Positions 1,391 to 64,000 of a stretch of 64,000 bases of DNA are shown piece after piece. The stretch's first letter is position 1, and every line of letters starts with the position of its first letter. Source of the DNA: Bacteroidales bacterium (GTDB lineage Bacteria > Bacteroidota > Bacteroidia > Bacteroidales > WCHB1-69); NCBI GenBank assembly GCA_031553535.1, contig JAVBLM010000001.1, positions 129,600 to 193,599 of the forward strand. Direction: 5' to 3'. The position numbers and the translations under genes were made by a program. The notes under the pieces are model-generated. The model did not search any database. It had not been told where the DNA came from and saw nothing but the letters and a program-made list of their open reading frames with translations.

Positions 1391-1402
1391 ATATGTAAAA
1401 TC

Positions 1403-9076: not shown

Positions 9077-9082
9077 AAATAA

Positions 9083-10628: not shown

Positions 10629-10706
10629 ATAAATTTATATCTTAAACGGAATCCTGATCCTGTTTAGTATTTTGTTATTTTTGCAAAAATAATCAAACAT
10701 ATTCAT

Positions 10707-40046: not shown

Positions 40047-40301
40047 GGTGTATGACTATATCGTACTTTTGCGTACGAAAGTATCGTTCCACTGCGTACG
40101 TATGTATTGTCCACCTGCATATGCTTGTATCATACTATTTCTTCAATAAACGGACAAATATTATACAATAAATCCATGGAAAGCGAGTTAGGTATACACT
40201 CAATAGACATGAATGTGTCTCATTTAGCTGCCGGGATTTATTTCTACTCCATGGAATTCAACGGACAGAAGATCACCAAGCGAATGAGCATTAAACGATA
40301 A
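40047..40301 (+). pseudogene. Remnant of a T9SS cargo gene: C-terminal sorting domain fragment only
   Basis: ...LYHTISSINGQILYNKSMESELGIHSIDMNVSHLAAGIYFYSMEFNGQKITKRMSIKR* parallels the last ~55 aa of the 2772-aa protein (HVHSISGKLLY...AAGIYIYSMEFNGQRIVKRMSIKR*). There is no body of the gene upstream. Confidence 0.75.
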
Positions 40302-40325
40302 AATCTTTTTCATAATTCAAATTGT

Positions 40326-40355
40326 GGCTGCCTCCCCGGCAGCCTTTTTTATTTT
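40326..40355 (+). terminator. Intrinsic terminator (module copy 2 of 3)
   Basis: GGCTGCC-tcccc-GGCAGCC followed by ttttttatttt. Confidence 0.8.
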
Positions 40356-47700: not shown

Positions 47701-50099
47701 TCCTTTCTTTTGATGTACCTGCAATTATATATACGAGTACAGGTGCTCCTCAAACTCCACCGGAATTAATAGTTGTTACAACAATCGGTACGTCTGTTTT
47801 CCAGAATACAGCACCTATGACATTGTCGAATGGTGTATGGACGGCGAATGTTCCGCAGCAATATTACGGAAGCAAGGTTGTATATTCTCTGAATGTCTCG
47901 GACACAAAGAGTAACAGTATTTCTTTGAAGGATTCGGTTTATATAATTTCCGGTGTGGGGACAGAACTCTATACAGGCCATGATTTAGCCGTATTCTCAC
48001 TGGTATCCCCGGTAACGAATCCTGATGACCTCTGCGTTCCGAATTATTTACCGGTGCAAGTACCCATTCTTAATTTGGGAGAGGATGATTATGATTTTAC
48101 ACAGGATTCCATAAAAGTATGTGCAGAGATCATCGATCCTAAAGGGTTTATTCATTCGATAATACATACTGTCAAGACGGGAACATTAGAGTCGGGACAT
48201 ACCGATACTGTAGAAATAATGTCCGCTTTGCCGGTGTATGCCGGTCTCTATAAGATTAAAACATGGGTAAGCAGTTCTGTAGATCATATTATATATGATG
48301 ATACATTAATTACCACCTATGCATCACCCAAAATAGGTTTACCTCTGTATACGAACTTCAGTACGGGCATTCCTATCGAATTTGTTTCTTCTCCGAGAAA
48401 TGGTAATAGCGTATGGGAACATTACTATGACCCAGGTTCTACCGTTCAGCCCGATTCGGGAACAGCGATGATACGGTTTAACGGCACTCCGGGTTCGATA
48501 GCACGTTTGAGTACCGGTCAATTGGATTTGTTCCAAGCCTTCAATCCCTTTGTAGAGTTCTGGTATTACCATGACGCGACAACATCAACCAGTGACTATA
48601 CGAATACGGAGATCAATGTATTAGTGAATGATGTAAGGCATAATATAGGTACAATCTATTTGAAAGATTCGTCAGGCCGTCACGGTTGGACACATTATAA
48701 ATATGATCTAAGTGCATTTACGACGGTTAATGCCTGTATTTTGATACAGTTTGAATCTATCAATAAGTATTCGGGTTCCGCTCAGCATATAGATTATATA
48801 GGAATATCTTCCGAACCTGACGCAGCTGTTTCTGGGATCATTATAACCCCTGCACCTGATTTATGCCATCGTTCGAACAAGAATATTTCTGTGGTATTGA
48901 CAGCTACCCGCTCCCAGGCAATACATTTTGACAATGCATCGGCTTTGATACTGGACATGAATGGAATTATCCATACTGTTTCCTTACAGGGCATAGTTTT
49001 AGATGGCAATAGCTCTGATACAGTACCCGTATTATCCAATATTACTATCCCGGTTGGAATTACTGACATGAAAGCCTATTTTAATACTCCGGTAGATAAT
49101 ATCCATGCCAATGATACGGCTGACCTTTCATTGGATATACGTCCTGCAATGTCTCTAACGGCGCAATCCATATCAGGAGGAACGAATTGCCTGGCAAAAG
49201 GGGGACCGGCGCAACAAGAAGTGAAGATAAAGAATATGGGTAATATAGAGATTCCCGGGATTGAGTTGGTATTAAATGTAATGACTTCTCCTCAACAAAC
49301 CCTTACAAAATCAGTAGGGAATTTGGCTCCGGGAGATTCTGCTATTATCCTCTTCGATGCTTATACCGTTCCTGCCGAGGCACAATATCAGGTACAGATA
49401 GCAGGATATATGAGTTGTGATTCGGTTTTGGTAAACGCCAGCACTCCTGTCACGGAATGCGTAGATATGGATGACCTTGTCCTGGTAGAAACCTTAAGTC
49501 CCGATCCTCTGGATGGAGGGATCGATCAGGTTGGTTCTACCAAGGAAATAGAAGTTTCCTTAACGAATACAAGTGATATGAAAAACTATCAGAACGTGGA
49601 TGTTACTACATTAATCGAGAATGCGAGCGGTCAGATACTGGCCCGGCATGTAGATATTATCCCTGCAGTTAATGTCTCGGAAAGTAATAAGCCGTTTAAA
49701 TTCACAGACAAGTACACCGTTCCTAACGAGGGAGTATATTATGTAAGGGTGTTTATAAGCAAAGTAGATAATTATCAGGAAAATGATACGATTCTGATAA
49801 CACGTACTACATCAAACAACTTACAGGGAACAGGGAATAATGTCTTTGCAATGGAGCAAAATATCCCCAATCCTGCCAATACCGGCACGACAATACGTTA
49901 TCATATACCGGAACCGGGAGAAGTAGTTTTCCATGTTCACAGCATAAGCGGTAAATTGCTGTATACCAAAGTACTGCAAGCCGAACCGGGAAAGCATACT
50001 ATAAATGTAAACACAAGTAGTTTTGCCGCAGGAATCTATATTTACTCCATGGAATTCAATGGACAACGGATTGTTAAGCGAATGAGCATCAAACGATAA
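41781..50099 (+). CDS. Giant (2772 aa) T9SS-secreted surface protein with jelly-roll, Ig/FN3-like and CARDB-like domains and two right-handed parallel beta-helix modules
   Basis: Signal peptide MMKKVFIFVLGILFLNLTGHSQ. Repeated CARDB-like segments (...NKG..DL.S..L.WSLNG...). PbH1-type repeats (NNSNNIVIKSITVDA..FTGTCTNVVIRDCKLL; FAGTCSNIEINACTIL). MAM-like jelly roll near the C-terminus. Type A T9SS C-terminal domain. Confidence 0.9.
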   Translation: MMKKVFIFVLGILFLNLTGHSQSGVRKWIEDFDGSTVSYAQNPQGSWVFNTDYYLPSLSGSSVSKSYLGFVPSREGDTIILQTASAYDLSNYDYVQLRFSHICKVSPMDIAKIQYRIAGQRFWEDIDPADYKGGASNYTKARGFNAASYPEWQARDSTVIPMQSWWKEEFFDLTVNIKKMSGVEIRFLIIHGDVPHTQASFGWLLENIQLTASTHELSPPIVKFIPPSVKNTVYTTGPHEINAKVKTTTNAPIKHPWLKYTATEPGKPAVTDSISMTKIAGDSLWKATIPQYIAGTKVEYSITGRDTIGNEAIDMSGYVIVRPSGGDKTGYVIVGTGTTTTSTYYFPVGQYYGTSWSRQIYLASELNSTSAGGIITEFAWDYASSGTFSKTNQYCYFQVVDDVATVSGYTDPVANGATLVWSGTFSASGGRTWINLQLDQPFYLPPGKNLMVYWINNNGTSYTSTTLFNGTSTSPTNRTIYAGAFSTVFPSTSTGTLTTNRPNARFYIIGTPPLNYSAGTFSIDMSDTIIVSPGLSVPIVATIKNKGKSNLDSVTVSYSINNAAHVSKKLYFNPGLPWDHNYQDTLGYYVPGAAINNAITVWISSPNGVHDSTTWDDTLTKNVYGSSDLLVAFVSPPANTVYTTGPYGIKASIKSITGAALPVTISLHVDYTYQGVTTSDVLPMLLDASDNLWKATIPQKRFNNHVEYSISLIDIVGNTVVLSNSYDIKRLCEGTSKGCDTNSVGLVSIDSPEKTGVLAGYDKPVRVTLKNKGVADLDSCYLNWSLNGVQQPGTAVYRGPLPDDFTDTITVGSYMPVANQRDTIKVWVSMPNGKVDPVKTDDTLTVSPLGCGTILSGYHQIGEGRTYTKLTDVLNIIRNCGVSGNLILQLKGEHPGADLNGISNYLQGYTLTITSYDNDPDSARIKVTSGAGITLNNSNNIVIKSITVDATKASYAIQFTGTCTNVVIRDCKLLTDTASTATTVAPIYKASATGVVDSIFIIHNLLDGGYDGFSFYGAPSTSVYGTNVIFDSNIVRNQSHYACAPQHVDFISYSHNTILSRTANIATAWHGLRAVYCNGPIIGNRIHQRNTGITSPDGILIQYYNQYPASKLHQRTLVANNEVITSPTGGISALHFTSAKAECINNSLHVSGSGNAYGIYIVNSTMNDLAIKNNNIVMTSATARPIEFSGTGNLQLYDIDYNNLYAPTNIGFYGVLITSMQTWQQTIPTDRHSKNIMPVFVDPSMKTSLEIVKDLRFLCNVIPPVITDIRGNIRAVTTTMGCYDVGSYQANATLWEITGLTDGHTPGQTEDVNVVVFNTGEDDITSINLEWSVNGTSKGSANHPVSLSRGDSTTIMVGQLTYPSANVTVKVWINNLNNDPQLDEYAGDDTVSRFVNVCNGGGYSGVVKVGKSVGAFPSFEAAYQALTLCGVLSNITIEIEPGTYPDNLSISNNATAFGTHKLTVTSSTSNASDVIVNSTIRIENATNVTFKNITVDVDSVSNACGIVFAGTCSNIEINACTILADPTTTSSTVHGIWYNNTNGSGNQISNISIINNTIDGGYCNVYFNYLGGAVGQGLNNIIDNNIFLRACSSVYIIQYGHVRSVSNNTIITRNTSTQQYGIHFRTNTCVDTIANNKILMQGTGTCYALDLYEQINSTTNGATHPVLLVNNEIRHLALSGGTYGILMYQTRADILHNSVYFKGTSSAYAMYINNTRTTDYLNIKNNIFSVETSGAGYPLYVNTATHVTQAFNTFMDYNDYHNTGANFAYLGGTTITTLPALQTATGQDANSVSVKPLYIDTAVSLECSSYDDKMECPLPNGVTTDIEGTTRLLITTMGAYTDQPVGLDLRAQAITPWNTKVVKDQVVQVNLNVASGGTTPVSSATFGWSLNGQTQQTGIPWNPAQPLGLAQQANVTIGSFTVTNTTNTYNIVVWIERANGQQDMKQKNDTVRTSATLVPLAEWVKPFNGDTISILSFDVPAIIYTSTGAPQTPPELIVVTTIGTSVFQNTAPMTLSNGVWTANVPQQYYGSKVVYSLNVSDTKSNSISLKDSVYIISGVGTELYTGHDLAVFSLVSPVTNPDDLCVPNYLPVQVPILNLGEDDYDFTQDSIKVCAEIIDPKGFIHSIIHTVKTGTLESGHTDTVEIMSALPVYAGLYKIKTWVSSSVDHIIYDDTLITTYASPKIGLPLYTNFSTGIPIEFVSSPRNGNSVWEHYYDPGSTVQPDSGTAMIRFNGTPGSIARLSTGQLDLFQAFNPFVEFWYYHDATTSTSDYTNTEINVLVNDVRHNIGTIYLKDSSGRHGWTHYKYDLSAFTTVNACILIQFESINKYSGSAQHIDYIGISSEPDAAVSGIIITPAPDLCHRSNKNISVVLTATRSQAIHFDNASALILDMNGIIHTVSLQGIVLDGNSSDTVPVLSNITIPVGITDMKAYFNTPVDNIHANDTADLSLDIRPAMSLTAQSISGGTNCLAKGGPAQQEVKIKNMGNIEIPGIELVLNVMTSPQQTLTKSVGNLAPGDSAIILFDAYTVPAEAQYQVQIAGYMSCDSVLVNASTPVTECVDMDDLVLVETLSPDPLDGGIDQVGSTKEIEVSLTNTSDMKNYQNVDVTTLIENASGQILARHVDIIPAVNVSESNKPFKFTDKYTVPNEGVYYVRVFISKVDNYQENDTILITRTTSNNLQGTGNNVFAMEQNIPNPANTGTTIRYHIPEPGEVVFHVHSISGKLLYTKVLQAEPGKHTINVNTSSFAAGIYIYSMEFNGQRIVKRMSIKR
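44000..47300 (+). repeat. Two copies of a ~1.65-kb CARDB + beta-helix supermodule (protein-level repeat) inside the 2772-aa gene
   Basis: The marker motif F.GTC(T/S)N..I..C.(L/I)L occurs at about 44652 and about 46300 (spacing ~1645 nt). Each copy is preceded by a CARDB-like W(S)(L/V)NG segment. Confidence 0.7.
49836..50096 (+). other. T9SS type A C-terminal sorting domain of the 2772-aa protein
   Basis: NNVFAMEQNIPNPANTGTTIRYHIPEPGEVVFHVHSISGKLLY...AGIYIYSMEFNGQRIVKRMSIKR. The N.PNPA start and G.Y......NG......K.... end are typical of Por_Secre_tail domains. Confidence 0.8.
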
Positions 50100-50154: not shown

Positions 50155-50460
50155 AGGTTTCCTTGTTATTCGAAGGCATAGCTCCATGTTGTTTTAAAGA
50201 AGTCCATAGGCACTACAAGGTTGGGAAAGGGATATTCATTCTTGTTTAAAGATGTCCCAAGGCTGGGAAAGGGATTTTCATCTTTGTTTGGAGGTGTCCC
50301 AGAATTGGGAAAAGGATTTTCACTCTTATTTGAAGGTGTCCCAAAGTTGGGAAAGGGGTTTTCATCCTTGTTTAGAGATGTCCCAGAATTGGGAAAAGGA
50401 TTTTCACCCTTATTTGAAGGTGTCCCAGGGTTGGGAAAGGTTCATGCAGCTATTACAAGG
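50155..50460. repeat. Tandem array, about 7 units of exactly 42 bp, two hairpins per unit
   Basis: TGGGAAA recurs at 50222, 50264, 50306, 50348, 50390 and 50432, with one or two degenerate units to the left. Unit: tgggaaagggattttcatctttgtttggaggtgtcccagaat. Hairpin TCCCA-gaat-TGGGA. Confidence 0.9.
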
Positions 50461-50575
50461 GAAAATAATACAATATATCTTTAACCTCCTATCAAAAAGA
50501 AATATATTCCGGTCATTATAGGACTATCTTTGCATCAACTTTTGATAATTTTATTACAAGTATTTAATATTTGTT

Positions 50576-50583
50576 TATATTTG
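50576..50583 (+). promoter_or_regulatory. -7 promoter box (TAtaTTTG) upstream of the TPR-LuxR regulator gene
   Basis: Exact TAnnTTTG match 27 nt upstream of the ATG at 50610. Confidence 0.35.
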
Positions 50584-50609
50584 TATTTCATATTTTCGAG
50601 AACATTATA

Positions 50610-52286
50610 ATGATAAAATCATTTTTCTTCAAAAAAGCTATCTTATTGTTATTGATGCTATTTCCGATTATCGGTCAAGGAAATAATAATCGCTCCTATT
50701 GTGAAGAACTTCTTGAGCAGTCGAAAAAAGAACGTATTGAGGGGAATTATATAAAATCCATAGAACTTCTCTCCGAAATTAAAGTGCTTTCAATAAATAA
50801 TGACTGGACAGATCTGCTAACGTATGCCCTCAATATTGAAGGTACTATCTATATGGATTTATTGGATTATCAGAAAGCAATGGAATGCTTTCTATCCGGC
50901 TATGAAATCGCTATAAAACAATCCTATAAAACGCAGCAAATAATGATATTGAACAATATCTCGCAGATATATTACATTAATAATGAAACAGACAAAGCAA
51001 AAGAATATCTTGATAAAGCATATGAAATATCCGAACAACTACAAGACAGTGCAAAACTAGGAATCGTGAGCATGAATCTGGGTGTAGTTTTCAATAAAAC
51101 CGGGGATCTCAACCAGGCGGAAAAATATCTGGATATTGCTATCAAATTGTCAAGTAAAGTAAAAGATACGATAACATGGATCGCATCAAAAGTAATAAAA
51201 ATAGAGAACCTGTATCTGAAAAAAGAATACGATAAGGCAGAATCACTGGCACTGGAAATTCTGGAAGAGACCCAATCTGAAATGGATGATGATCAGAATG
51301 CACAGTGTTTGCTATTGCTTTCCCAGATCCACGACCAAAAGAAAAACTATCCCAAGGCCATTTCATATGCCCGTGAAGCACTAAACAATCATGTTAAGTT
51401 AACACTAAAGATCGAAATCTATGAACAATTATCAAAATTATACAGGAGTAATAATGCTCTGATTTTAGCTCTCGACTATCAAGATTCTTTATCCATAGCG
51501 AAAGATTCGTTAATGAAAATAAATGATATGGCACAAGTGGCCAATAATCAAATACGCTTCGACCTGATTAATTCTGAAAAGGAATTAGCAGAAAATAAAG
51601 CAAAACAAAAGACGGAACGAACCTTCTTTATCTTTGTTGTTATTTTTATGATCATACTTTCTATTATCGCTATATGGATATACCGTATTAAGCTGGAAAA
51701 AAATAAGCAACAAAAGATAATCGCAGAGAATGAACAAAAGATCATAAAGTTAAAACTGGAAAAAGAACAAAACGAACGTTTATTATTAGAGCAACAATTA
51801 AAAGAACAAGAAACGCTATCATTATTGGAACAAGAAAAACTAAACAATGAAATCGATACAAAAAACAGACAACTTGCATCGAAGGCCTTATTCCAATCGA
51901 ACAGAAATGAATTGATCAAAGAAATTATCGACACCTTTTCCAATATTGTATCAAACAAAGTAAAAAACGATGTACTTGAGTCAGCTATTCAACAATTGAG
52001 ACTGCAACTAAAGGAATCTGCGGAATGGGATGGTTTTTTAGTCTATTTCGAGAAAATCAACCCCCTGTTTTTATCATCCTTAAAAGAGAAGCATCCTACA
52101 CTCAATGCCAGTGAAATCCGGTTCCTTTCCTATATTTACCTTAACCTGGACACAAAAGAAATTGCCAAACTATTAAATATTACCCCGGGACATTGTAGAA
52201 AAAAACGGTTACGGCTTGCCAATAAGATGCATGTATCCATAGCTGAATTATACAGCTACCTGATAAATGAAATAGATTCAAATTAG
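50610..52286 (+). CDS. Membrane-anchored one-component regulator: signal peptide, extracytoplasmic TPR region, TM helix, coiled coil, LuxR-type HTH
   Basis: MIKSFFFKKAILLLLMLFPIIGQG. TPR-like repeats over ~300 aa. TM helix TFFIFVVIFMIILSIIAIWIY. Coiled coil KLEKEQNERLLLEQQLKEQE. C-terminal LNASEIRFLSYIYLNLDTKEIAKLLNITPGHCRKKRLRLANKM. The track start at 50571 is TTG. Confidence 0.8.
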   Translation: MIKSFFFKKAILLLLMLFPIIGQGNNNRSYCEELLEQSKKERIEGNYIKSIELLSEIKVLSINNDWTDLLTYALNIEGTIYMDLLDYQKAMECFLSGYEIAIKQSYKTQQIMILNNISQIYYINNETDKAKEYLDKAYEISEQLQDSAKLGIVSMNLGVVFNKTGDLNQAEKYLDIAIKLSSKVKDTITWIASKVIKIENLYLKKEYDKAESLALEILEETQSEMDDDQNAQCLLLLSQIHDQKKNYPKAISYAREALNNHVKLTLKIEIYEQLSKLYRSNNALILALDYQDSLSIAKDSLMKINDMAQVANNQIRFDLINSEKELAENKAKQKTERTFFIFVVIFMIILSIIAIWIYRIKLEKNKQQKIIAENEQKIIKLKLEKEQNERLLLEQQLKEQETLSLLEQEKLNNEIDTKNRQLASKALFQSNRNELIKEIIDTFSNIVSNKVKNDVLESAIQQLRLQLKESAEWDGFLVYFEKINPLFLSSLKEKHPTLNASEIRFLSYIYLNLDTKEIAKLLNITPGHCRKKRLRLANKMHVSIAELYSYLINEIDSN

Positions 52287-52452: not shown

Positions 52453-55400
52453 ATGAAAAAATGGATGTTTTTATTACTGGTAACTTTAATTTCTCTACAA
52501 GCAAGCTATTCTCAAAATGTTTCTTATGAAAGAGAAAATTTTGATGGAAACAGTATCAGCTTTGTTTCTCAACCTTCCTCGTCATGGAGAATTGACAAAA
52601 ATTACTATGTAAGTTCTCCTAATTCTTATCGAGGTGTTGTCCCCAATAAGTCAGGAGACTCAACGATTTTAACCTCTCCTCCTTATGATTTTTACACGAA
52701 TGGTTATTCCAATATATTACTTCGGTTCAACCATATCTGCAAAATATCTCCCCGGGATATCGTCCGGATAGAATATAAGATTCAAAATCAAGGCTGGCTT
52801 CCAATACCGGCAACTGCTTATTTGGGAAAAGCCGCCAATTATATAACCACCGGATTCAATGCCGCCAGCTATACTCAATGGCAAGCCAACGATAGTACAG
52901 CCCTTCCTACAAACAACTGGTGGAAAGAAGAAACATTTGACCTGGGCTTTTTAATGGGATATGCCCCTAATGCTCAAATCCGGTTTATTATAAAGCACGG
53001 CAGTACACCCGGAACACAAATTTCATACGGGTGGCTACTGGACAACATTGAGATAACTGCTTCCACTTATCTGGTTCGGGATCCTATTGTAGAATTTATA
53101 GGTAGTGTTGTAAAGGACACCGTTAACAGTACCGGGCCTTATACTATAAATGCAAAAGTACAAACCACAACAAGTGCTCCAATTAAGACCCCTTTCCTGA
53201 CATATACATATACTTTGAATGGAGTATCTACTACAAATTCCATCGAAATGGATCCTGTATCCGGGGATTCTTTATGGAGAGGTGTTTTACCTCAAATTGA
53301 AGGAGGAAGCACTGTTTCGTATTCCATCACAGGCTATGATACAAATGGGAATAATGCAACAGTACAAGAGCGTTATTTCATTAAGAAACCCTCCGGCAAT
53401 GATAGTGTTTCAGTTGCATTAACAAGCATAAACTCTCCCGCGAAAGGAGAAAACCCAGTAGGGGCTACCCCTGTAACAGCTACATTCCGTAACAAAGGTG
53501 ATTCCACGTTAAGAGCTGTGGAGATCAATTGGAGTTTAAATGGAGTGTTGCAAACAGTACAACCTCATACCTGGACAGGGGGTCTACCCTGGGATTTTGA
53601 ACATACGGAGCAATTAGGCACCTTCAACCCTCGTTTAAGAATGTCGGATACTATTGTTATATGGGTAAACAATCCCAATGGCATACAAGACCCCAAGCAT
53701 TCGGATGACACCTTATCCATTATTACTTATGGTTGTCCAGTAGATGTATCGGGCAGTTTCCCTGTAGGGAAGAACAGTGAATTCAAAACGATACAGGAAG
53801 CTTTTAACTCTTTTCAAAAATGCAGCCCTACCGGAAATATCACCCTCGAACTGGAATCCGACACGATCCGTGAAAACTGGGATTTCTCCAATATCAATTC
53901 TTTTATGAATGGATACATGCTGACGATAACATCGTTAAAACATCACAGGGATAGTGTCGTTCTTCGTCCAAATACAGGAGGAATAGGTATAACATTGGGA
54001 AATACAAGAAACCTTACATTGGATGCGATTACAGTTGATGTTAGCCATTTAATTCCTCAGATTCCTGTTATGATGAATGTATATGCTATCTATTTCAGTA
54101 ATACATGTACCAACATTATCATTAATAATTGTAATATAAAAGCACACAAAACATCTAACTCAACTAATATACATCCAATCTTTAAAGGAAGTACAGGGCT
54201 TGCAGACAGTATTTATATAACAAATAATATCTTAGATGGAGGATATTCGGGATTTACTTTTCCCGGTGGAAATACAAATCAATATGGAAAGAATATAGTT
54301 TTTGACAGCAATACACTCACTAATCAGTATTATTATGGAATAAATGCTTCTTATACCGATTTTAAAAGCATATCCAATAACACAATTCTTAGCAGGGAAG
54401 CTGCCAATTTCAGCGCAACATGGATTGCCATATATATGAACAATGCCAACGGTAATATTACAGGGAACCGGATCCGGCAACGTAATACATCAAACATTAC
54501 CAACCCGAGAGGGATTTTCAGTTATTACCATAATTATTACTTTACGAACGACACCGCGCTTATTGCCAACAATGAAATTATAATTTATACAACCGGAGAA
54601 TATGAAGGAATACAGGTAAATTATTCCCGTTCGAAAATCATACACAATTCCATATATGTAAAAGGATCCGGATCTTCAAGAGGGATTTACATCAATGAGC
54701 CCGGATATGTTAATATCCATGTTATCAAGAACAATAATATAATTATGGAATCTGCTGCTGCATACCCTATCCAGATTTCAAAGGCAACAAATATAAGGAG
54801 TTATGATATAAACAGTAATAACTATTATGCTCCGACTTATATTGGAAATATAGGAGGAACAGGAGGGGATAAACTAACAATGGATGCCTGGCAAAAGATG
54901 GTTACAACAGACGTGAATTCCGTAAGAATCCGAAGTTCTTTCATAGACAGCACCAAAAACCTGAAGATGCGTGACTATACGGGACTGGAATGCAAGCCTC
55001 TTCCGGAAGTACCTAAAGATATTGATAATACACCGCGCCTGGGATTAACAACGATGGGTTGTTACCATTACGATCCGATGTATACGGTAAATGCAAGATT
55101 AACAGACCTCCAGGGATGGAGGGAAGGAAACATTTCGGGAGAATCCGATACGGTAAAAGTATTACTGACCAATACAGGAGCAACTCCTTTGACAAATGCC
55201 AATTTAACATGGATATTCAATGGGGCAGAAACAACAACAGCATGGTCGGGAACTTTAGCCAAAGGGGAAAGCACTACTGTCACATTAGGGAAAATAACCT
55301 ATATCTCGGGTAATTATACAATAACCGCCAGAATAGATAACTTGGGCGGCTCTTTGCAAGACGATTTTTTACAGGATGACACTACTTCCGTTTCAATATT

Positions 55401-58400
55401 TGTATGTTCATCTATATACAGTACAGGAATATATACTATCGGAAAAACAGCAAGTTCTTTTACATCGGTAGAAGAAGCTATTAAGAAGCTATCTCTTTGC
55501 GGAGCAAACGGAGACATTACACTGGAAATAAAAAACGGTACATACGCCAACACCGTCGACCTGACCGGTATTTCTTCTTTGTTAGGGAACAATAAATTGA
55601 CCATCAAATCCCAAAGCGGAAACCCCGGAGATGTTATTCTACAAACAACCAATATCGGATTTACATTAGCACGAAGCAATAACATTGTAATAGATGGCGT
55701 AACAATAGATGCAAAGGGAGGAATAGTAGGCATACAGTTTTTAGATACATGTACAAATGTTGTCATTCAAAATTGTATATTATTGGTTGATACAACCGTC
55801 ACATCCAACAAATATGGTGGGATTTATAAGCCCAGTATTGCCAATGTTGCAGATAGCATCTTTATACTAAATAATATTATAGAAGGAGGGCATTTTGGGA
55901 TCTGGCTTTATGGTGTCAGCTCAAGTGTCTATGACAGTAATATTTTTATAACCGGTAATGCTATCTCCAAACAATCACATTATGGAATTTATTTATATTA
56001 TACTGATTTTAGAATTATATCAAACAATATAATAACAAGCAGATTGTCCAACATAAATACTTCATGGACAGGAATAAATACTTCAAATACGAATGGAGAC
56101 ATTATTGCAAATAAAATAAAACAATTAAACAGGGCAATATCATATGCAGTAGGAATAAGTCTTTCAAATCATAATAATAACAAAACGGAGTTAGCGCTGA
56201 TTGTAAACAATGAAATAAATGGTTATGTGGGAAATGGTTATGCTGCATTAGCTCTTTCAAGTACTCGTGCCGATATTATACATAATTCTATATATGTTCG
56301 AAGAGTTGCAGGTTCAAAGGGTATTGGTATAAGTGACGGAACCAGTAATCGTCTCAATATTAAAAATAATAATATTATAATGGACACTACGGGTACCTTC
56401 CCTATCTATATTAATGGTTCTTCAAATGCAGCTTTGTATAACTTTGAATCTAACAACTATTATTCGCCAAGTTACATAGGATACGCAGGTGCAAATAAAG
56501 TAACAATGGAGCAATGGCAAGATGTGTTCTTTACAGATATTAATTCCGTAAAGGTTCGTCCTACCTTTATAGACAGTACTATTAATTTAAAATTCATAAA
56601 TTATGACAGTGTAAAATGTCCTGTTTTGTCAGATGTTGATACCGATTTGGAAGATAGCATCCGGGCAGGGGCATTTACAGCAATGGGATGTTATCATGGA
56701 TTTGCACCTTTTTCGAAGAATATTAAACTAACGGAAATCCTTAATTGGAATGAAGGGCCAGTCTATGGAACAAATGATACGGTTAAGGCTGTAATTATAA
56801 ATACCAGTTTATCCTCTTTCTTGCCACAAACTATTAATTGGTCTTTTAATGGAAATTCCAGAACAGGAGTTCCATCAAACAAGACATTGGCATATGGGGA
56901 AAGGGATACCATTACGTTAGGAATAATAAATTACGGTTTGGGACATAATATATTAACTGCATGGATCGATAATTCTCAGGACAATTATCTCGAAGATGAT
57001 ACGATACTGGCAACAAGTTATATATGTTCTACAGCCGGAATTAACGGTACTTTCACGGTAGGAAAAACAGGGGATTTTAAAACCATAAATCTTGCACTAC
57101 AACAAATAGAAGACTGCGGAGTAAATGGAAATATTATACTGAAAGTACAACCCGGCCTGTATGTTGAAGACATAGACTTAACTGACTATGCTTTAATATT
57201 AGGTAATAATAAATTGACGATTACCTCTACTACAGGAAATGCTGAAGACGTTGTTTTTAAAACACTGTCAGTGGGAATGATATTGTCCCAAAGTAATAAT
57301 ATCGTTATAGATGCCATTACAATTGATGCAACAAAAGGGAAGTTTGCAATACAATTTAAAGGCGCTTGCACCAATGTTGTAATTAGTAATAATATTCTAT
57401 TAGCAAACCTAACTACAACTTATAGCGATTATAATCCTATACATAAAGGTAGCAATACAGGTGTAGTTGATAGTATTTTTATTGTAAATAATGAATTAAA
57501 CGGAGGATATATTGGTTTTAATTTTATTGGAGGAGTAGCTTCGACCCTTGGAACAAATGTGGTTTTTGACAGTAATCGAGTTTTCAATACACATACTTCG
57601 GGAATATATCCGCAATATACTCATTTTACCAGTATTTCGAATAATACCATATTAAGCAGAACGGAAAATACAATAACCAGTACATGGTATGCAATGCGTT
57701 TTGAAAGTTGCAATGGCCCCATTACAAATAACCGGATAAAACAACAAAGTAATGTGATTGCACAACCTTACGGAATATATCTTAATAATTATAGTATCAA
57801 TTCAACAGCAGATACTGCATTGATTGCCAACAATGAAGTCATGCTTAATGTTGCAACAGGTACAACAGGTGGCATATATACAAATGTTTCCCGTACAAAA
57901 ATTATCAATAATTCCATTTACGTATCCGGTGCTGCTGCAGCAAGGGGAATGTATATTGCTAATGATAATAATAGCCGTACTGTCGCAAAAAACAATAATA
58001 TTGTTGTGGCATCTTCTTCTGCATATCCTATTTATCTGAATTACGTAACCAATATGAGTTTATGTGATCTGGATTACAACAATATGTACGGCACCGGATA
58101 CGTGGGATACTGCGGAAGTACCGGAGGTGCAAAAGCCACCATAGATGCCTGGCAACAATTTGTTACCAGTGATAAGCATTCAGTGAGTGTTTATCCGAAT
58201 TTTATTGATCTTACCAAAAATATGGATCTATTGGATAGTGTATTGAGTTGCCCTGTATTTGAAAATGTTACAGAAGATATAAATAAGAATACTCGTGTTT
58301 CTCCCAACACTACAATGGGTGCATATCAATATATAGGTACAACACACGATGTCCATCCTGTTGAATTTGTAAATTTATCTCCAACTTATCCGCTTGGAAC

Positions 58401-61400
58401 GCTTATTCCATTGCAGGTTGCCATTACAAATTCCGGAACCGATACATTAAAATCAGCTTTGATCAGTTGGACTGCCAATGGAGTATTACCATACAAAGTA
58501 CAACCCTGGCAAGGAAACCTGGCACCGGGAGAAACAGAAGTCGTTCCTGTAACAACAGGTAGCCTGACACTTGGAGCAGGAAATACAGACTTAATATTAT
58601 TCACCAGTATGCCTAATAATGTTCCGGACACGAGAACATTTAATGATACGTTGAGAACCTCTATCTATGCATGCGACAGTATGCTTAACGGGACATACCT
58701 GGTTGGTACCGGAGAAGATATCGAAGATTTAAAAACCGTTTTTGAATTATTATCCAAATGTGGAATTGATGGAACCGTTACGTTCAAGCTAACTCCGGAT
58801 ACCTACACATGGAATCAAAATATAGGGACATATCCGGGAGTAAATTATTACAACAGGATTATCTTCACATCATCCACTTCAAATGCCGGAGATGTAACTA
58901 TACTTTCTACAGGTACCGCTTCCATGACTTTAAGCCAGGCAAAATATATTACCCTAAAAGATATTACTATCGGTAATTCATCCGCTGCCGTAGCTTTACG
59001 TTTCTCCGGAACATGTAGTGATATTGAAATCAATGGCTGTATTATTTCAGCTAATCCGACAACAACAGTTGCCACATCAAGGGCTATTGAGTATGTCGAA
59101 ACATACGGGAGCGGAAACAAACTGGATAATATCCGAATAGTAAACAACACAATAAACGGCGGATATTATAATGTATATTTTGATTATCCCGGCAGTTCGG
59201 AAAATGCCGTGTCGGACATTACTTTTGATAACAATATATTAACGAATGCATATTCGTATGGTTTCTATTCGAAGAACTGGGGATATTATCGCAGTATTTC
59301 GGATAATACAATTAAAACACGAAATGCAAATACTACTCAATATGGTATATATGCAGAGGCCAACACAAATATTGATAATTTGAACCGGAATAAAATACAT
59401 CTGTATGGAACATCCAATTCCAATGGTATTTATTTATCCGGGATTAATTCCTCTACATATCTGACAAGATACAATGCCCAAATAATAAACAATGAAATAA
59501 TTATTTCAAGTGCCGGAGGCAGCAACCCCAGTTACGGAATATCTACATCCAACACTAATGCAACCATGTTCCACAACTCTATCTATTTGCAAGGAACCGC
59601 CGGTTGCTACGGATGGAATATCGCTTCAACCGCGGCTACATATTCCCTTATCTCCAAAAACAATCTATATGTAACCAAGACAACAGGGGCAGGCTATCCT
59701 CTTTATGCAAGCAATGCCACCTTTGTAACAACGGCAGGAGGGACAATTTCAGATTACAATAATTATTACACCACAGGAACAAATATTGCTTTTATTGGAT
59801 CTCCTGTAGCAACACTTGCCAATTTACAAACCGCAACGGGGCAGGATGCTAACTCAACAAACAAAGAACCGGTATTTACCGATGTTACCAAAAGTTTGGA
59901 AATTGCAGATGCGGCAAATATAATATGTCCTGTCAATCCGGTTGTATTATCTGATATCAGAGATGTTTTACGTGTTGATTCAACCAACATCGGAGCATAC
60001 GGAATTGCGTTAAAGAAACTGGATGCTATGGCCACGGAGATTATTCTGTCTTCCGACCAGAGCACCCCTACCCTCAAAATTAAAAACACAGGAAAGGACA
60101 CTATTAAATCAATAGAAATTAATAGTTTGTACAACGGAAGAGTAAAATCACCTGTATCATGGAATGGCTCCATTGCTTCCATGGAGGAAGTATCGATTGT
60201 TTTGGATACAATTATGGCCGACCCGGATTATAATACAATCACTGCGTGGATCAGCAATGTAAACGGTGGAGGATTGGATTCCTTACAGTTAAATGATACT
60301 GCAAGTACTGCATTCTATCTATGCCAAGGAGGGTTAGCCGGAATATATACTGTCGGGAATTCAGGCAAGTTTAAAACGATTGATAATTTTATAGATGTGA
60401 TAAGCAAATGTGGAGTAAGTGGAGCTATTACTTTAGCATTTGAAGATGGAACACACAATATAACATTCGATGTATCGTCTATCTCTACCATATTAAACTC
60501 TCACCCATTGACTATTACTTCCGAAAACCAGGATTCTTCTTTAGTTAAGCTTATCGCGTTGAAAGATGCGGTTATATTATTAGGGAATAATACAAATGTT
60601 ACAATTAAAGATCTGACGATAAATGCGAAACAAGCCAAATATGGAATACAATTTACAGCAGCATGTTCGAATATTGTCATTGACAAATGTGCTATATTGG
60701 CAAACCCAACAACAACACAGAATAATAGCTATCCTATTTTTAAAGGAGATAAAACAGGTATTGCGGACAGTATCCGTATTACAAATAATCTTCTTGATGG
60801 CGGCTATACCGCATTGTGGTTTTATGGCGGAATTGACAATAATACATACGGAAAAAATATAGTCCTGGACAGTAATACGATAAGCAATCAATCCCATTAT
60901 GGAATATATCCGCAATATGTAGATTTTTTCAGTGTATCTTATAATACGGTTTTAAGTAGAACTGCAAACATAAATACAACATGGATAGGATTGCGAATGC
61001 AATATGCAAATGGTCCCGTTATCGGCAATAGTGTTATCCAAAGAAGTAATGACATAACACATCCAACAGGTATTTACGCATATTACTATAATTATTATCT
61101 TGCCGGCAACAACATAGGTCGCATAATAAACAATGAAGTTATCTTGAATACCACAGATATGCAAAGCGGGATAGAAATAGGTTACTCTAATGTTGACGTT
61201 ATCCATAATTCCATATACATAACAGGAACAGGAGCTGCCCGTGGAATTACAACCCGTGCTGAGATTAATAACCTGACTATCAAAAACAACAATATAGTAA
61301 CAACAGCGACCAGTTCATACCCTATCAGTATTACAAATAGATTGGTATTAAGACCTAATAATATCGATTATAATAACTATTACGCACCTACATACATCGG

Positions 61401-64000
61401 ATCTGTCGGATACGCATACACGTCTTTATCCGATTGGAGATCAGTAGTAACTTCGGATCAGAATTCCGTAAGTGTCATGCCGAATTTCAAGAATCCAACT
61501 ACAAGCCTGGAACTATCCGATTATTCCCACTTATTATGTCCGCTGTATACAAATGTGACAACAGATATACTGGGAGAAACCAGGGAAAGCCTGACAACAA
61601 TGGGAGCATATACTCAGATCATCTCTCCATTTGACTTAATGCTTAGCAATATAAGTGTAGACAAAGAGATTGTGAATAATCAGAAAGTTCCCATAAGCAT
61701 TAAGGCCATAAATGTCGGGCATACTCCTATAAATGAAGCCGATCTCGGATGGAGCATTAATGGTGTACCGCAAATACCTGTCACATGGACAGCTGCTAAC
61801 AGCCTGAATCTTTTCGATGAAGAAGATATCTACATTGGTACATTCGAAGCACGCGATACAAATACATTCGACATTGTTGTTTGGATAGAAAATATCAATG
61901 CCTTTCCGGATCCTGTAAATTGGAACGATACCGTATCTGCTTCATCTATTGTTGTTCCCCTGATAGAATTTGCAGCACCATTCGTGCCGGATACTGTCTA
62001 TGCCCGTTCTTTCGATGTATATGTAAAAATAATGGAAGGAACCGGTGCTACCATGGTAACGCCTGCATTAAATGTACAATCCTTATTCAATGATACTACA
62101 TTTTACGATACGATAGCTATGAGTCTGGAGAATAATGGATTATGGAAAGCCCAAGTCTCTCAACAATATTATTACAGCAAAATCAATTACGATATAACCG
62201 TAACGGATACCGTTGGAAATAGCATTACACTATTCGATACCACATATATTAAATTTGCTTCCGGAAGTGAATTATACCCCGGAAATAATTTAAGTTTGAT
62301 AGCGGTAAATGATCTCGTAGATCCTAATGCGCTTTGTTCGCCGGATTATACTTCCGTATCGGTTGATATATTAAATACCGGGGAGAACAATCAAGATTTC
62401 TCCGTCAACAATATCACCTTAAGCTTACGGGTAACGGAGCCTATTGTATTCAGCGTAGATACAATAATTAAAACAGGATCTTTGGTTGCAGGCAAGGTAT
62501 CCACCATAAAAATAACCGACATGATGCCTATTGTTACGGCAGGAGCATACGATCTTAAAATATGGATGGATAATCCGATAGATGGTATCGTGCATGATGA
62601 TACCTTATGGTTCAACTATGTAACCGGAAGATTTGCCCTGCCTGTTGATGAAGACTTCAGCAATGGTATTCCTATGGTATTCACAGTAAAGACAAATAAT
62701 GATCCTTATAAATGGGATACAATAGTGAAAGGAACAGGAAGCGATACCGCAGTTAAACCTGTATATGGAACAAAAATGTTATCCTTTACCGGAACTCCCG
62801 GTTCCATGTCTACATTATCTACGCGTCAGCTGGATTTGAGCAGGACGATCGATCCGTCCCTGACGTTCTGGTATTTCCATGATACCGTTGCCGGAGAAGA
62901 TTACACGGATGTGCGCATTACCGTAGACGGAGGAGACTCCTACTCTACCCTGTTCTCTCTTACAAAATACGATCCTGCTTATTGGGGGTGGAAAGAATAC
63001 AATATTGACCTGCCGTCTTTTGCTATCAATCAATGTGTGATCATTGCATTCGAAGCAATGGAAAAAACACATGGTAAAAGCGTTGTTCAATACATTGACC
63101 GGATTCTTATCACCTCCAGCCAAAATCTTTCATTAGATACATTATTATTACCTGAGGTATCTGCATGTGATCTGAACGGACAGGAATTGAAAGTCGTTTT
63201 AAGAAATACGACCGGACAACGGATTAATTTCTCAGATGCCCCGATGGAAATACATATCAATGTTACGGGAGCTCTGAATAGAAAGATCACTTATCCATTA
63301 CGTGGCGCTATGGACGGATTAGAAGTTGATACGCTTACAATAACTACACATTTTGATTTTGCCGCCATGGGAGATTATTATTTTAAAGCCTACATAAGTA
63401 CGCTTGCGGCAGATTTCAACCGCAAGGATGATACTACGACAAACCATCTTCTTATTAATCCGAGACTGGATCTGAGAATCATTCCTAACTCAAATGGTTT
63501 CGATAATTGTCTCTTGGCAGGAACAAAAATAAATCAAGAGGTTATCGTTAAGAATAACGGAAATATGGATCTATCCGGTATTGAACTTACATTGCGCATA
63601 GACGCTCCCGAAGCAACTCCTCCTTATTTTGAGATTATACGAAATACTATATCCGGAACTATTGCTGCCGGGGATTCTATCCGGTACCCGTTCACCGATT
63701 TCTATACTGTGCCCTGGAGCCCGACTTATCAATTACAGGTATTCGCCAACCTGAATTGTAATCCCGGTCTACTAAATCCAAGAACATCGGCTGAGGAATG
63801 TGTCAATATAGATGATCTCGCACTTATTGCTATCAGTAATCCTCCCAGGCAAATTGACACGGTGGGATCGAATATCAATATTGAGGTAATTCTGGAAAAC
63901 AGAAGTGATGTCGTTTCTTACTCCGGTGTAAAAATACATGCACGGATAGAAGACTCTAAAGGAAATATAAAAGCCGACATATCGGAAGCTATTTCCAATA
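52453..64000 (+). CDS. Second giant T9SS-type beta-helix surface protein, paralogue of 41781-50099 (3'-partial; at least 3849 codons in window)
   Basis: ATG at 52453 with signal peptide MKKWMFLLLVTLISLQASYSQ. The N-terminal domain is collinear with the first giant protein (FNHICKISPRD vs FSHICKVSPMD; SYGWLLDNIEITAS vs SFGWLLENIQLTAS). Frame 1 yields no terminated ORF in the track across 11.5 kb, which is consistent with one unbroken frame. The frame is still open at 64000 (..VKIHARIEDSKGNIKADISEAISN). Confidence 0.88.
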   Translation, partial: MKKWMFLLLVTLISLQASYSQNVSYERENFDGNSISFVSQPSSSWRIDKNYYVSSPNSYRGVVPNKSGDSTILTSPPYDFYTNGYSNILLRFNHICKISPRDIVRIEYKIQNQGWLPIPATAYLGKAANYITTGFNAASYTQWQANDSTALPTNNWWKEETFDLGFLMGYAPNAQIRFIIKHGSTPGTQISYGWLLDNIEITASTYLVRDPIVEFIGSVVKDTVNSTGPYTINAKVQTTTSAPIKTPFLTYTYTLNGVSTTNSIEMDPVSGDSLWRGVLPQIEGGSTVSYSITGYDTNGNNATVQERYFIKKPSGNDSVSVALTSINSPAKGENPVGATPVTATFRNKGDSTLRAVEINWSLNGVLQTVQPHTWTGGLPWDFEHTEQLGTFNPRLRMSDTIVIWVNNPNGIQDPKHSDDTLSIITYGCPVDVSGSFPVGKNSEFKTIQEAFNSFQKCSPTGNITLELESDTIRENWDFSNINSFMNGYMLTITSLKHHRDSVVLRPNTGGIGITLGNTRNLTLDAITVDVSHLIPQIPVMMNVYAIYFSNTCTNIIINNCNIKAHKTSNSTNIHPIFKGSTGLADSIYITNNILDGGYSGFTFPGGNTNQYGKNIVFDSNTLTNQYYYGINASYTDFKSISNNTILSREAANFSATWIAIYMNNANGNITGNRIRQRNTSNITNPRGIFSYYHNYYFTNDTALIANNEIIIYTTGEYEGIQVNYSRSKIIHNSIYVKGSGSSRGIYINEPGYVNIHVIKNNNIIMESAAAYPIQISKATNIRSYDINSNNYYAPTYIGNIGGTGGDKLTMDAWQKMVTTDVNSVRIRSSFIDSTKNLKMRDYTGLECKPLPEVPKDIDNTPRLGLTTMGCYHYDPMYTVNARLTDLQGWREGNISGESDTVKVLLTNTGATPLTNANLTWIFNGAETTTAWSGTLAKGESTTVTLGKITYISGNYTITARIDNLGGSLQDDFLQDDTTSVSIFVCSSIYSTGIYTIGKTASSFTSVEEAIKKLSLCGANGDITLEIKNGTYANTVDLTGISSLLGNNKLTIKSQSGNPGDVILQTTNIGFTLARSNNIVIDGVTIDAKGGIVGIQFLDTCTNVVIQNCILLVDTTVTSNKYGGIYKPSIANVADSIFILNNIIEGGHFGIWLYGVSSSVYDSNIFITGNAISKQSHYGIYLYYTDFRIISNNIITSRLSNINTSWTGINTSNTNGDIIANKIKQLNRAISYAVGISLSNHNNNKTELALIVNNEINGYVGNGYAALALSSTRADIIHNSIYVRRVAGSKGIGISDGTSNRLNIKNNNIIMDTTGTFPIYINGSSNAALYNFESNNYYSPSYIGYAGANKVTMEQWQDVFFTDINSVKVRPTFIDSTINLKFINYDSVKCPVLSDVDTDLEDSIRAGAFTAMGCYHGFAPFSKNIKLTEILNWNEGPVYGTNDTVKAVIINTSLSSFLPQTINWSFNGNSRTGVPSNKTLAYGERDTITLGIINYGLGHNILTAWIDNSQDNYLEDDTILATSYICSTAGINGTFTVGKTGDFKTINLALQQIEDCGVNGNIILKVQPGLYVEDIDLTDYALILGNNKLTITSTTGNAEDVVFKTLSVGMILSQSNNIVIDAITIDATKGKFAIQFKGACTNVVISNNILLANLTTTYSDYNPIHKGSNTGVVDSIFIVNNELNGGYIGFNFIGGVASTLGTNVVFDSNRVFNTHTSGIYPQYTHFTSISNNTILSRTENTITSTWYAMRFESCNGPITNNRIKQQSNVIAQPYGIYLNNYSINSTADTALIANNEVMLNVATGTTGGIYTNVSRTKIINNSIYVSGAAAARGMYIANDNNSRTVAKNNNIVVASSSAYPIYLNYVTNMSLCDLDYNNMYGTGYVGYCGSTGGAKATIDAWQQFVTSDKHSVSVYPNFIDLTKNMDLLDSVLSCPVFENVTEDINKNTRVSPNTTMGAYQYIGTTHDVHPVEFVNLSPTYPLGTLIPLQVAITNSGTDTLKSALISWTANGVLPYKVQPWQGNLAPGETEVVPVTTGSLTLGAGNTDLILFTSMPNNVPDTRTFNDTLRTSIYACDSMLNGTYLVGTGEDIEDLKTVFELLSKCGIDGTVTFKLTPDTYTWNQNIGTYPGVNYYNRIIFTSSTSNAGDVTILSTGTASMTLSQAKYITLKDITIGNSSAAVALRFSGTCSDIEINGCIISANPTTTVATSRAIEYVETYGSGNKLDNIRIVNNTINGGYYNVYFDYPGSSENAVSDITFDNNILTNAYSYGFYSKNWGYYRSISDNTIKTRNANTTQYGIYAEANTNIDNLNRNKIHLYGTSNSNGIYLSGINSSTYLTRYNAQIINNEIIISSAGGSNPSYGISTSNTNATMFHNSIYLQGTAGCYGWNIASTAATYSLISKNNLYVTKTTGAGYPLYASNATFVTTAGGTISDYNNYYTTGTNIAFIGSPVATLANLQTATGQDANSTNKEPVFTDVTKSLEIADAANIICPVNPVVLSDIRDVLRVDSTNIGAYGIALKKLDAMATEIILSSDQSTPTLKIKNTGKDTIKSIEINSLYNGRVKSPVSWNGSIASMEEVSIVLDTIMADPDYNTITAWISNVNGGGLDSLQLNDTASTAFYLCQGGLAGIYTVGNSGKFKTIDNFIDVISKCGVSGAITLAFEDGTHNITFDVSSISTILNSHPLTITSENQDSSLVKLIALKDAVILLGNNTNVTIKDLTINAKQAKYGIQFTAACSNIVIDKCAILANPTTTQNNSYPIFKGDKTGIADSIRITNNLLDGGYTALWFYGGIDNNTYGKNIVLDSNTISNQSHYGIYPQYVDFFSVSYNTVLSRTANINTTWIGLRMQYANGPVIGNSVIQRSNDITHPTGIYAYYYNYYLAGNNIGRIINNEVILNTTDMQSGIEIGYSNVDVIHNSIYITGTGAARGITTRAEINNLTIKNNNIVTTATSSYPISITNRLVLRPNNIDYNNYYAPTYIGSVGYAYTSLSDWRSVVTSDQNSVSVMPNFKNPTTSLELSDYSHLLCPLYTNVTTDILGETRESLTTMGAYTQIISPFDLMLSNISVDKEIVNNQKVPISIKAINVGHTPINEADLGWSINGVPQIPVTWTAANSLNLFDEEDIYIGTFEARDTNTFDIVVWIENINAFPDPVNWNDTVSASSIVVPLIEFAAPFVPDTVYARSFDVYVKIMEGTGATMVTPALNVQSLFNDTTFYDTIAMSLENNGLWKAQVSQQYYYSKINYDITVTDTVGNSITLFDTTYIKFASGSELYPGNNLSLIAVNDLVDPNALCSPDYTSVSVDILNTGENNQDFSVNNITLSLRVTEPIVFSVDTIIKTGSLVAGKVSTIKITDMMPIVTAGAYDLKIWMDNPIDGIVHDDTLWFNYVTGRFALPVDEDFSNGIPMVFTVKTNNDPYKWDTIVKGTGSDTAVKPVYGTKMLSFTGTPGSMSTLSTRQLDLSRTIDPSLTFWYFHDTVAGEDYTDVRITVDGGDSYSTLFSLTKYDPAYWGWKEYNIDLPSFAINQCVIIAFEAMEKTHGKSVVQYIDRILITSSQNLSLDTLLLPEVSACDLNGQELKVVLRNTTGQRINFSDAPMEIHINVTGALNRKITYPLRGAMDGLEVDTLTITTHFDFAAMGDYYFKAYISTLAADFNRKDDTTTNHLLINPRLDLRIIPNSNGFDNCLLAGTKINQEVIVKNNGNMDLSGIELTLRIDAPEATPPYFEIIRNTISGTIAAGDSIRYPFTDFYTVPWSPTYQLQVFANLNCNPGLLNPRTSAEECVNIDDLALIAISNPPRQIDTVGSNINIEVILENRSDVVSYSGVKIHARIEDSKGNIKADISEAISN
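53400..61620 (+). repeat. Five copies of the ~1.63-kb CARDB + beta-helix supermodule inside the second giant gene
   Basis: Marker motifs: FSNTCTNIIINNCNI (~54092), FLDTCTNVVIQNCILL (~55738), FKGACTNVVISNNILL (~57355), FSGTCSDIEINGCIIS (~59002) and FTAACSNIVIDKCAIL (~60650). Spacing is 1615-1650 nt. Confidence 0.75.

Follow-up and report, generated by a model that had tools for sequence, protein, structure and literature searches.

Can the largest gene of a stretch of DNA be missing from its track of open reading frames (ORFs), and if so, what does such a gene encode? This question is raised by 64,000 nucleotides of the contig JAVBLM010000001.1 (assembly GCA_031553535.1; positions 129,600–193,599 of the forward strand) from a Bacteroidales bacterium of the WCHB1-69 lineage, hereafter called the window. 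A sequence-only reading had claimed that an ATG at position 52453 opens a real giant gene, here called gene A, which is unlisted only because it has no stop within the window. Our analysis supports this claim. Gene A is a typical, very large member of an abundant, uncharacterised family of type IX secretion system (T9SS) surface proteins, and its product is probably a non-enzymatic, O-glycosylated, surface-anchored fibril or adhesin.

Translation of the window from ATG 52453 to position 63999 gave 3,849 codons in frame 1 with zero stops, and the closest upstream in-frame stop was found at 52384. According to the base composition of the span 52453–64000, stops are expected at 6.9% of codons, and the probability of 3,849 stop-free codons is approximately 10^-119.8 (i.e., ~1e-120); the remaining five frames of the span contain 153–304 stops apiece. 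The plus-strand ORFs of at least 60 aa in this span (n = 6; starts at 53219, 55059, 57824, 60623, 61434, and 61881) each lie in frame 2 or 3 when 52453 is taken as frame 1. Both the absence of a frame-1 stop and the frames of the six listed ORFs are as the sequence-only reading had described them. Gene A is absent from the ORF track because the lister omits ORFs that run off the source, and the open frame and the lister's rule agree that a real gene was left out. Within the window, gene A is already 1.39 times as long (3,849/2,772) as its upstream neighbor, paralogue B, in line with the ~40% excess claimed earlier, and this single coding sequence accounts for 18% of the window. For annotation, the lesson is that a track dropping edge-crossing frames can hide the largest gene present.

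The protein encoded by gene A is already deposited at NCBI, unnamed. An exhaustive profile search of cluster representatives, made with an alignment of the repeated modules described below, identified a protein of 3,992 aa (P0034) with 100% identity to the window ORF over 3,845 aa, from Met5. P0034 is encoded on a 194,196-bp NCBI contig, the same size as that reported for paralogue B (P0077, to which B is 100% identical) and for the FtsZ, FtsA, tetratricopeptide repeat (TPR), and AraC proteins of the window. It runs 147 residues beyond the window end, and its final residues are '...SAGIYIYSMEYKGQRITKRMSIKR'. Counted from ATG 52453, the predicted full product is 3,996 aa, and the stop codon would lie at the window-equivalent positions 64441–64443, 443 nt past the window. 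The tail of P0034 matched the T9SS type A sorting domain TIGR04183 (47.3 bits; cutoff, 23) and PF18962 (46.2 bits; cutoff, 27). This domain occupies aa 3921–3996, approximately 0.21–0.44 kb beyond the window, and was read from the database protein, not from the window DNA; the last 60 nt of the window had no exact match in genome or metagenome contig collections. A type A T9SS C-terminal domain past the window had been predicted and was found, although the predicted distance of 0.6–0.8 kb was too long, given the stop at 443 nt. The only NCBIfam matches of the tail were TIGR04183 and two type-A-dependent peptidase tails, with none to TIGR04131, the sorting domain of type B; the Pfam family CHU_C reached 15.8 bits, below its cutoff of 27.

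At the other end of the protein, the N-terminus (MKKWMFLLLVTLISLQASYS, followed by QNVS) contains a charged n-region, a hydrophobic core, and small residues at −3 and −1, and has no lipobox cysteine. Judged by the rule for n-, h-, and c-regions, it is a predicted Sec signal peptide, as had been claimed for the ATG at 52453. Residues M1 and Q21 are invariant in an alignment of 11 homologues, and Q21 fits the 'Q-rule', according to which glutamine occupies position +1 of signal-peptidase-I substrates in Bacteroidota. The deposited P0034 starts at the second ATG (Met5, position 52465), whereas we prefer the first ATG at 52453 because its MKK n-region is common to B and the family consensus, and because M1 and Q21 are invariant. 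The public annotation probably trims the signal peptide by four residues.

Gene A encodes, in order, a signal peptide, a β-sandwich, an immunoglobulin (Ig)-like domain, five diverged modules of ~545 aa, Ig-like and jelly-roll domains, and the sorting domain (Table 1). Self-comparison of gene A revealed the ~545-aa tandem periodicity in five copies, which are old duplicates, 28–40% identical to one another. The modules of A and B fall into two subtypes, one comprising A1, A2, A3, A5, and B1, and the other A4 and B2 (A4–B2, 38% identity). Pfam recognized CARDB (PF07705) at aa 895–963 (53.6 bits; cutoff, 22.7) and Beta_helix (PF13229) at aa 2707–2834 (30.5 bits; cutoff, 25.9). Other CARDB copies remained below the threshold (17.6 and 18.2 bits in the C-terminal ~720 aa), yet they align with the copy at aa 895–963. 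An AlphaFold2 (AF2) model of module 2, built on a seven-module alignment (five A and two B modules), had a predicted local distance difference test score (pLDDT) of 86.7 and a predicted TM-score (pTM) of 0.81. It consists of an Ig sandwich at residues 16–120, a right-handed β-helix at residues ~125–480 with ~13 coils and pLDDT above 90, and then a small cap. In Foldseek searches, the sandwich resembled the CARDB structures 2kl6 and 3idu (TMt 0.71–0.76), including the PF1109 CARDB domain (TMt 0.76). The β-helix and CARDB content anticipated from the letters alone is supported by the Pfam matches and by the Ig-plus-β-helix fold of the module model.

After the fifth module, the partial sixth unit corresponds to only the first ~115 aa of a module. 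It is followed by a diverged second copy of the Ig-like domain X at aa ~3166–3275 (self-similarity offset +2960, 28–30% identity), and the region 61603–62277 that holds both aligns to B residues 1801–2050. The C-terminal stalk showed 38–45% identity to nine metagenomic fragments, eight of which end in PF18962. An earlier suggestion of a MAM domain is not established: the best match, InhA-like_MAM at aa ~3393–3560, was below the threshold (E = 0.049; 13.6 bits; cutoff, 26.9), and no MAM match exceeded it. The N-terminal domain had no Pfam match at all. The AF2 model of the N-terminal 330 aa was of moderate quality (mean pLDDT 67.7), with β-strands over aa 50–204 and an Ig/FN3-like domain of clearer definition at aa 210–310, and Foldseek returned only generic β-sandwich, MAM, and Ig matches for it. 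A MAM assignment of this domain was rejected, as the MAM-containing structures 4yu5 and 2v5y appeared only among those generic β-sandwich matches to a model of that confidence. The N-terminal region is shared with paralogue B: residues 1–317 of A align to residues 2–327 of B with 47% identity (E = 2e-79), which bears out the claim that the N-terminal ~330 aa of A are collinear with the product of its paralogue at 41781. The end of the window aligns to approximately residue 2621 of B and not to residue ~2560, as estimated before. A is longer than B because it contains five modules of ~545 aa rather than two.

The family to which A and B belong is large. At E ≤ 0.001, the module profile matched 9,784 cluster representatives, and 3,189 remained at the stricter threshold of E ≤ 1e-30; many of the representatives are 3,000–7,800 aa in length. 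Among the best 150 of the 9,784 representatives, the number of near-full modules per protein ranged from 1 to 11, 94 had an A-like sorting domain at the end, and 84 had an A-like head at the start. Even the closest relative of A has just 43% identity, and word-indexed searches yielded only fragments with 40–60% identity. In species-representative genomes, we found 41 head-domain loci (36–55% identity), all in uncultured Bacteroidales or Bacteroidetes metagenome-assembled genomes (MAGs), with 12 loci in Cd354_bin6, 7 in RGIG8187, and 5 in UBA1205. We take isolate labels such as Cd354_bin6 and Gx485_bin121, on our own reading, to denote the termite gut; others have rumen sources. Contig or locus ends truncate about two-thirds of these loci, and the family is systematically fragmented in MAG assemblies. 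The complete relatives are mostly 2,400–3,500 aa in length, and all of those of at least 2,400 aa end in a type A sorting domain like that of A. Giant relatives cluster in other genomes too; at several relative loci, the sorting domain of an upstream paralogue is located just before the next gene, forming head-to-tail arrays. At one locus of a water-buffalo rumen Bacteroidales MAG (positions 1–9599 of locus L001; GCA_017616775.1, JAFZXM010000056.1), an edge-cut head homologue is divergent to a gene for a 3,793-aa Beta_helix and Por_Secre_tail protein. Among the family matches listed, names were few and read 'hypothetical protein' or 'parallel beta-helix repeat protein'. Our searches of Pfam, NCBIfam, the PDB, and the literature yielded no family-level model, solved structure, or describing paper, and profile searches of PDB sequences with the module, N-terminal, and C-terminal regions gave nothing significant. 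The closest context that we found is a termite-protist ectosymbiont, in which 51 of 56 Ig-like-domain proteins with T9SS C-terminal motifs were predicted adhesins (PMC12483993).

From these features, we infer the secretion, anchoring, glycosylation, and adhesive or structural role of the gene A product in this anaerobic, gut-type Bacteroidales bacterium as follows. The preprotein would cross the inner membrane via Sec, and signal peptidase I would cleave after S20, leaving Q21 as the new N-terminus. The type A sorting domain would then route the protein through the T9SS and, by analogy with other type A cargo, would be removed as the protein is linked to anionic lipopolysaccharide. Going by the established biology of such cargo, the protein would be anchored at the outer membrane by its C-terminus, with the N-terminal head projecting outward. 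The mature protein would be an extended rod of ~20 β-rich domains, with a core of five modules in which a ~13-coil β-helix follows a CARDB-like Ig domain, and a tip formed by the family-specific head of β-sandwich and Ig domain, the β-sandwich being presumably the membrane-distal end. By our own estimate (~10 nm per module and ~4 nm per Ig-like domain), its extended length would be on the order of 100 nm. Such a rod could reach towards and bind plant particles, host or protist surfaces, or other microbes, and the module count (five in A, two in B, and the 1–11 of the best representatives) may act as a length dial. Gene A contains 54 Bacteroidota O-glycosylation sequons of the form D[ST][AILVMT], compared with 17.3 ± 3.9 in shuffles, and this excess suggests heavy glycosylation.

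The proposed fibril or adhesin resembles several known systems in part. Like the T9SS type A cargo of Bacteroidales, such as the gingipains of Porphyromonas gingivalis and TfsA and TfsB of Tannerella forsythia, it has a Sec signal and a type A sorting domain, and with TfsA and TfsB it shares the enrichment in O-glycosylation sequons; however, it is far larger, at 3,996 aa, and consists of an array of CARDB and β-helix units with no protease or S-layer domain. HagA of P. gingivalis is a T9SS cargo protein of ~2,600 aa with four tandem adhesin repeats of ~450 aa. HagA and the gene A product are both large Bacteroidales T9SS surface proteins with a variable count of tandem modules of ~450–550 aa and a presumed binding function, but the cleaved-adhesin repeats of HagA are near-identical, whereas the gene A modules are 28–40% identical and composed of Ig and right-handed β-helix domains; no similarity between the two sequences was detected in any search. 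Giant repetitive T9SS-exported surface filaments are also found in Bacteroidota as SprB and RemA of Flavobacterium johnsoniae. SprB carries TIGR04131, a sorting domain of type B, and is driven by the gliding motor, whereas the tail of gene A is of type A only, and the window contains no gliding genes. The chlamydial Pmp proteins and those of the pertactin/FHA type are β-helical rods with multicopy, fast-diverging paralogues and an adhesive role, as proposed for A, but they use type V secretion (autotransporter or two-partner) and form single long helices, unlike the T9SS route and the discrete Ig-plus-helix modules of gene A.

Several points weigh against a surface-anchored fibril or adhesin. 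Neither experiment nor homology connects the gene A product to a characterized adhesin. The last 147 aa and the stop codon of gene A rest on a database protein, not on DNA. No T9SS machinery genes (SprA/Sov, PorK–N, PorU/V) were found within the 64-kb window, and the organism is assumed to be competent for this secretion on the strength of the cargo signal and the Bacteroidales relatives. Part of the sequon excess is due to the DDT motif, a conserved structural feature of the CARDB-like domains. The model of the head domain is only moderately confident, and no ligand can be proposed for this domain. Many glycan-active enzymes and phage depolymerases use the right-handed β-helix as their catalytic fold, and single modules could hold lineage-specific active sites that a family-wide scan would miss.

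The surroundings of B bear on whether adhesion is the primary role. Upstream of B, we found three tandem leader copies of ~280 nt (40943–41217, 41221–41495, and 41504–41778; 87–95% identical), each bounded by a replica of B's start (ATGATGAAGAAGGTTTTTATT), such that the promoter/leader and first codons are triplicated; these could represent multiple promoters, decoy starts, or a recombination footprint. The DUF805b RNA motif (RF02914) occurs three times in this region (41155–41195, 41433–41473, and 41716–41756), the last copy 25 nt before the ATG. Of 36 relative loci, 7 also carry it, 20–35 nt upstream of their giant-gene homologue (Table 1), and the ~410 kb scanned contained no other copy; this small 'cis-regulatory' motif thus appears to be a recurrent 5' leader of the T9SS giant-gene family. 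The region upstream of gene A had no significant Rfam match and lacks DUF805b.

A third family member has left an orphan 3' end (40107–40354) in the 1.8 kb that separate B from the AraC gene, seen as a 64-aa ORF ending in '...AAGIYFYSMEFNGQKITKRMSIKR'. It retains the last ~56 codons of a sorting domain, with positions 40223–40306 81% identical to the end of B's sorting domain, and a terminator hairpin (40311–40354) 95% identical to that after B. This remnant suggests a past deletion or recombination in a tandem array.

One alternative is that A, B, and the orphan remnant belong to a fast-evolving multigene family that forms a variable surface coat or undergoes antigenic variation, through exchange or differential expression of its members, under pressure from phages, protist grazing, or host immunity, with adhesion being secondary. 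The 12 and 7 loci in single MAGs, the head-to-tail arrays of relatives, the 43% identity of A's closest relative, the remnant at 40223–40354 with its 81–95% identity to the 3' end of B, and the triplicated leader with a motif that recurs upstream of family members all speak for such a coat. We nevertheless consider it unlikely as the primary role: near A, we saw neither an invertible promoter nor a recombinase gene nor a near-identical cassette, the modules of A share no identity at the DNA level from which ongoing gene conversion could be argued, and A itself has no DUF805b leader. A variable coat would also be compatible with an adhesin and does not exclude it. A broader proposal has A and B forming part of an undescribed, rapidly diversifying repertoire of length-adjustable CARDB and β-helix fibrils that is specific to gut Bacteroidales of termite, rumen, and similar habitats and operates as a regulated variable-adhesin or antigenic-variation system, with DUF805b as its cis-regulatory switch; such a system is possible but doubtful.

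The β-helix raises a second alternative, a multi-catalytic glycanase, in which each helix would be a hydrolase, lyase, or epimerase of the GH28, PL, or AlgG kind, and the five units would form a surface-tethered, cellulosome-like array acting on plant or host glycans. Among the top Foldseek matches of the module 2 helix were 2uve (a GH28 exopolygalacturonase), 6kqs (GH136), 4ozy (AlgG), 2pyh (AlgE4), 5olq (a rhamnogalacturonan lyase), and phage tailspikes. The termite gut and rumen habitats of the relatives are fiber-degrading, and the export of glycanases by T9SS is known from the literature. However, these structural matches were weak (E = 5e-6 to 1e-3, 9–14% identity, TM ≤0.41), and only the generic Beta_helix was matched in Pfam, with no glycoside hydrolase, lyase, or CAZy-type family found for gene A in Pfam or NCBIfam. 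Across 641 modules, the positions conserved at ≥80% were eight ladder asparagines, glycines, and the CARDB N/G/D...DT motif; the asparagines are spaced ~23–28 residues apart and are 85–100% conserved. There was no conserved acid/base cluster, and no charged helix residue (Asp, Glu, Lys, Arg, or His) reached 80%; E389 and K439 are invariant in the seven modules of the window but are conserved at <80% family-wide. The ~350-aa helix of gene A shares its fold and Asn-ladder repeats with CASH/PbH1 enzymes and tailspikes (GH28, PL, AlgG/AlgE, and NosD) but differs from them in lacking conserved catalytic residues and in occurring as five tandem copies, each after a CARDB-like Ig domain. Because there is neither a conserved catalytic cluster nor a CAZy-type family match, a structural or adhesive function is favored over an enzymatic one, and a glycanase array seems quite improbable.

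The integrity of the assembly was also considered. Over 11,909 nt, a stretch that takes in the first 9.8 kb of gene A, a Logan contig of run SRR23967709 matched the window with 0 mismatches; this contig is itself cut at 3,887 aa of the giant gene. The GC content of gene A (36–39%) is like that of the rest of the window, and the sole repeat family in it is 73 nt in length with 67–75% identity; because gene A contains no long near-identical DNA repeats, repeat misassembly is excluded. Giant repetitive genes in metagenomes are often misassembled, and most of the relatives break off at the edge of a contig or locus. An artefact, in which assembly error or decay had left a chimeric repeat expansion or a pseudogene with a meaningless open frame, is nevertheless extremely improbable and was rejected, given the chance probability of ~1e-120 for the open frame, modules too diverged in protein (28–40%) and too free of long DNA repeats for repeat collapse or expansion, the identical Logan contig across 11.9 kb, and a domain order that is collinear with B, with complete relatives of 2,400–3,500 aa, and with representatives of 3,900–4,800 aa.

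The gene between B and A encodes a TPR protein (Table 1) with weak BT3442, SusR, FimS-type, and DUF6377-type matches. Its parts, as read from its sequence, are a signal or transmembrane segment, periplasmic TPR repeats, a transmembrane helix at aa ~375–395, a coiled coil, and a C-terminal helix–turn–helix-like segment, and it is a plausible candidate for a one-component-like local regulator. Its listed TTG start is probably too early, with an ATG at ~50610. The gene ends 166 nt before the ATG of A on the same strand, and no terminator-like site was found between them in the scan; a σ70-type promoter scan is uninformative for Bacteroidota. No such TPR regulator was found beside the giant genes of the relatives. 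Between the terminator of B and the TPR gene, a 42-nt tandem repeat occurs in about six copies (50216–50438; 80–85% identical). The window as a whole is core chromosome, with genes for FeFe hydrogenases, HtpG, AspRS, and ferritin and part of the dcw cluster (a transpeptidase homologue, a MurE homologue, FtsA, and FtsZ), and it further holds an RND efflux operon and AraC and TetR regulators. Among the housekeeping genes are a small leucine-rich repeat protein (8456–9076, minus strand) and, at 9669–11750, two ORFs of 318–347 aa with no Pfam match.

Table 1. Features of gene A and its neighbors (window positions), and DUF805b motifs at the loci of relatives (positions within each locus)
Feature	Position	Strand	Basis or remark
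Giant gene A, 5' 96% of coding sequence	52453..64000	+	Codons 1–3849 of a predicted 3,996
Sec (signal peptidase I) signal peptide, aa 1–20	52453..52512	+	Predicted cleavage between S20 and Q21; sequence rule, homologue alignment
N-terminal β-sandwich, aa ~22–205	52516..53067	+	AF2; no Pfam or NCBIfam family
Ig/FN3-like domain X, aa ~206–311	53068..53385	+	AF2 β-sandwich fold, block pLDDT 76–89
Module 1, aa 312–868, CARDB-like Ig and right-handed β-helix	53386..55056	+	Hidden Markov model (HMM) envelope P0034 308–864, module alignment, self-BLAST
Module 2, aa 866–1410, CARDB-like Ig and right-handed β-helix	55048..56682	+	Pfam CARDB, AF2 model
Module 3, aa 1409–1954	56677..58314	+	Self-comparison, HMM; 39–40% identity to modules 1, 2, and 5
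Module 4, aa 1953–2513, divergent subtype	58309..59991	+	28–30% identity to other A modules, 38% to B module 2
Module 5, aa 2511–3050	59983..61602	+	Pfam Beta_helix, self-comparison, HMM
Partial sixth unit (CARDB-like Ig only, aa ~3051–3165), then second X (aa ~3166–3275)	61603..62277	+	Self-similarity offsets +2740 and +2960
C-terminal stalk, aa ~3276–3849: CARDB-like, MAM-like jelly roll, more Ig-like domains	62278..64000	+	Sub-threshold Pfam; collinear with B 2026–2621
Paralogue B, 2,772 aa, complete: A-like head, two modules, A-like C-terminal region, type A sorting domain	41781..50099	+	TIGR04183, 35.2 bits
Transmembrane TPR protein, 571 aa, between B and A	50571..52286	+	TPR Pfam matches
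DUF805b at relatives	L005 6036–6073; L011 2299–2336; L012 1649–1686; L015 9944–9979		Rfam
DUF805b at relatives	L018 9860–9897; L023 5819–5853; L027 84–121		Rfam

Giant repetitive Ig and β-helix cargo is expected in this phylum, and gene A by itself would be unsurprising to a T9SS cargo specialist. Of greater interest as a lead is the family, with its several copies per genome and variable module number, and the DUF805b leader associated with it. The proteins of this family would dominate the exposed surface of fiber-associated gut Bacteroidales, and they are obvious candidates for the attachment of these bacteria to plant particles, protists, and host tissue.

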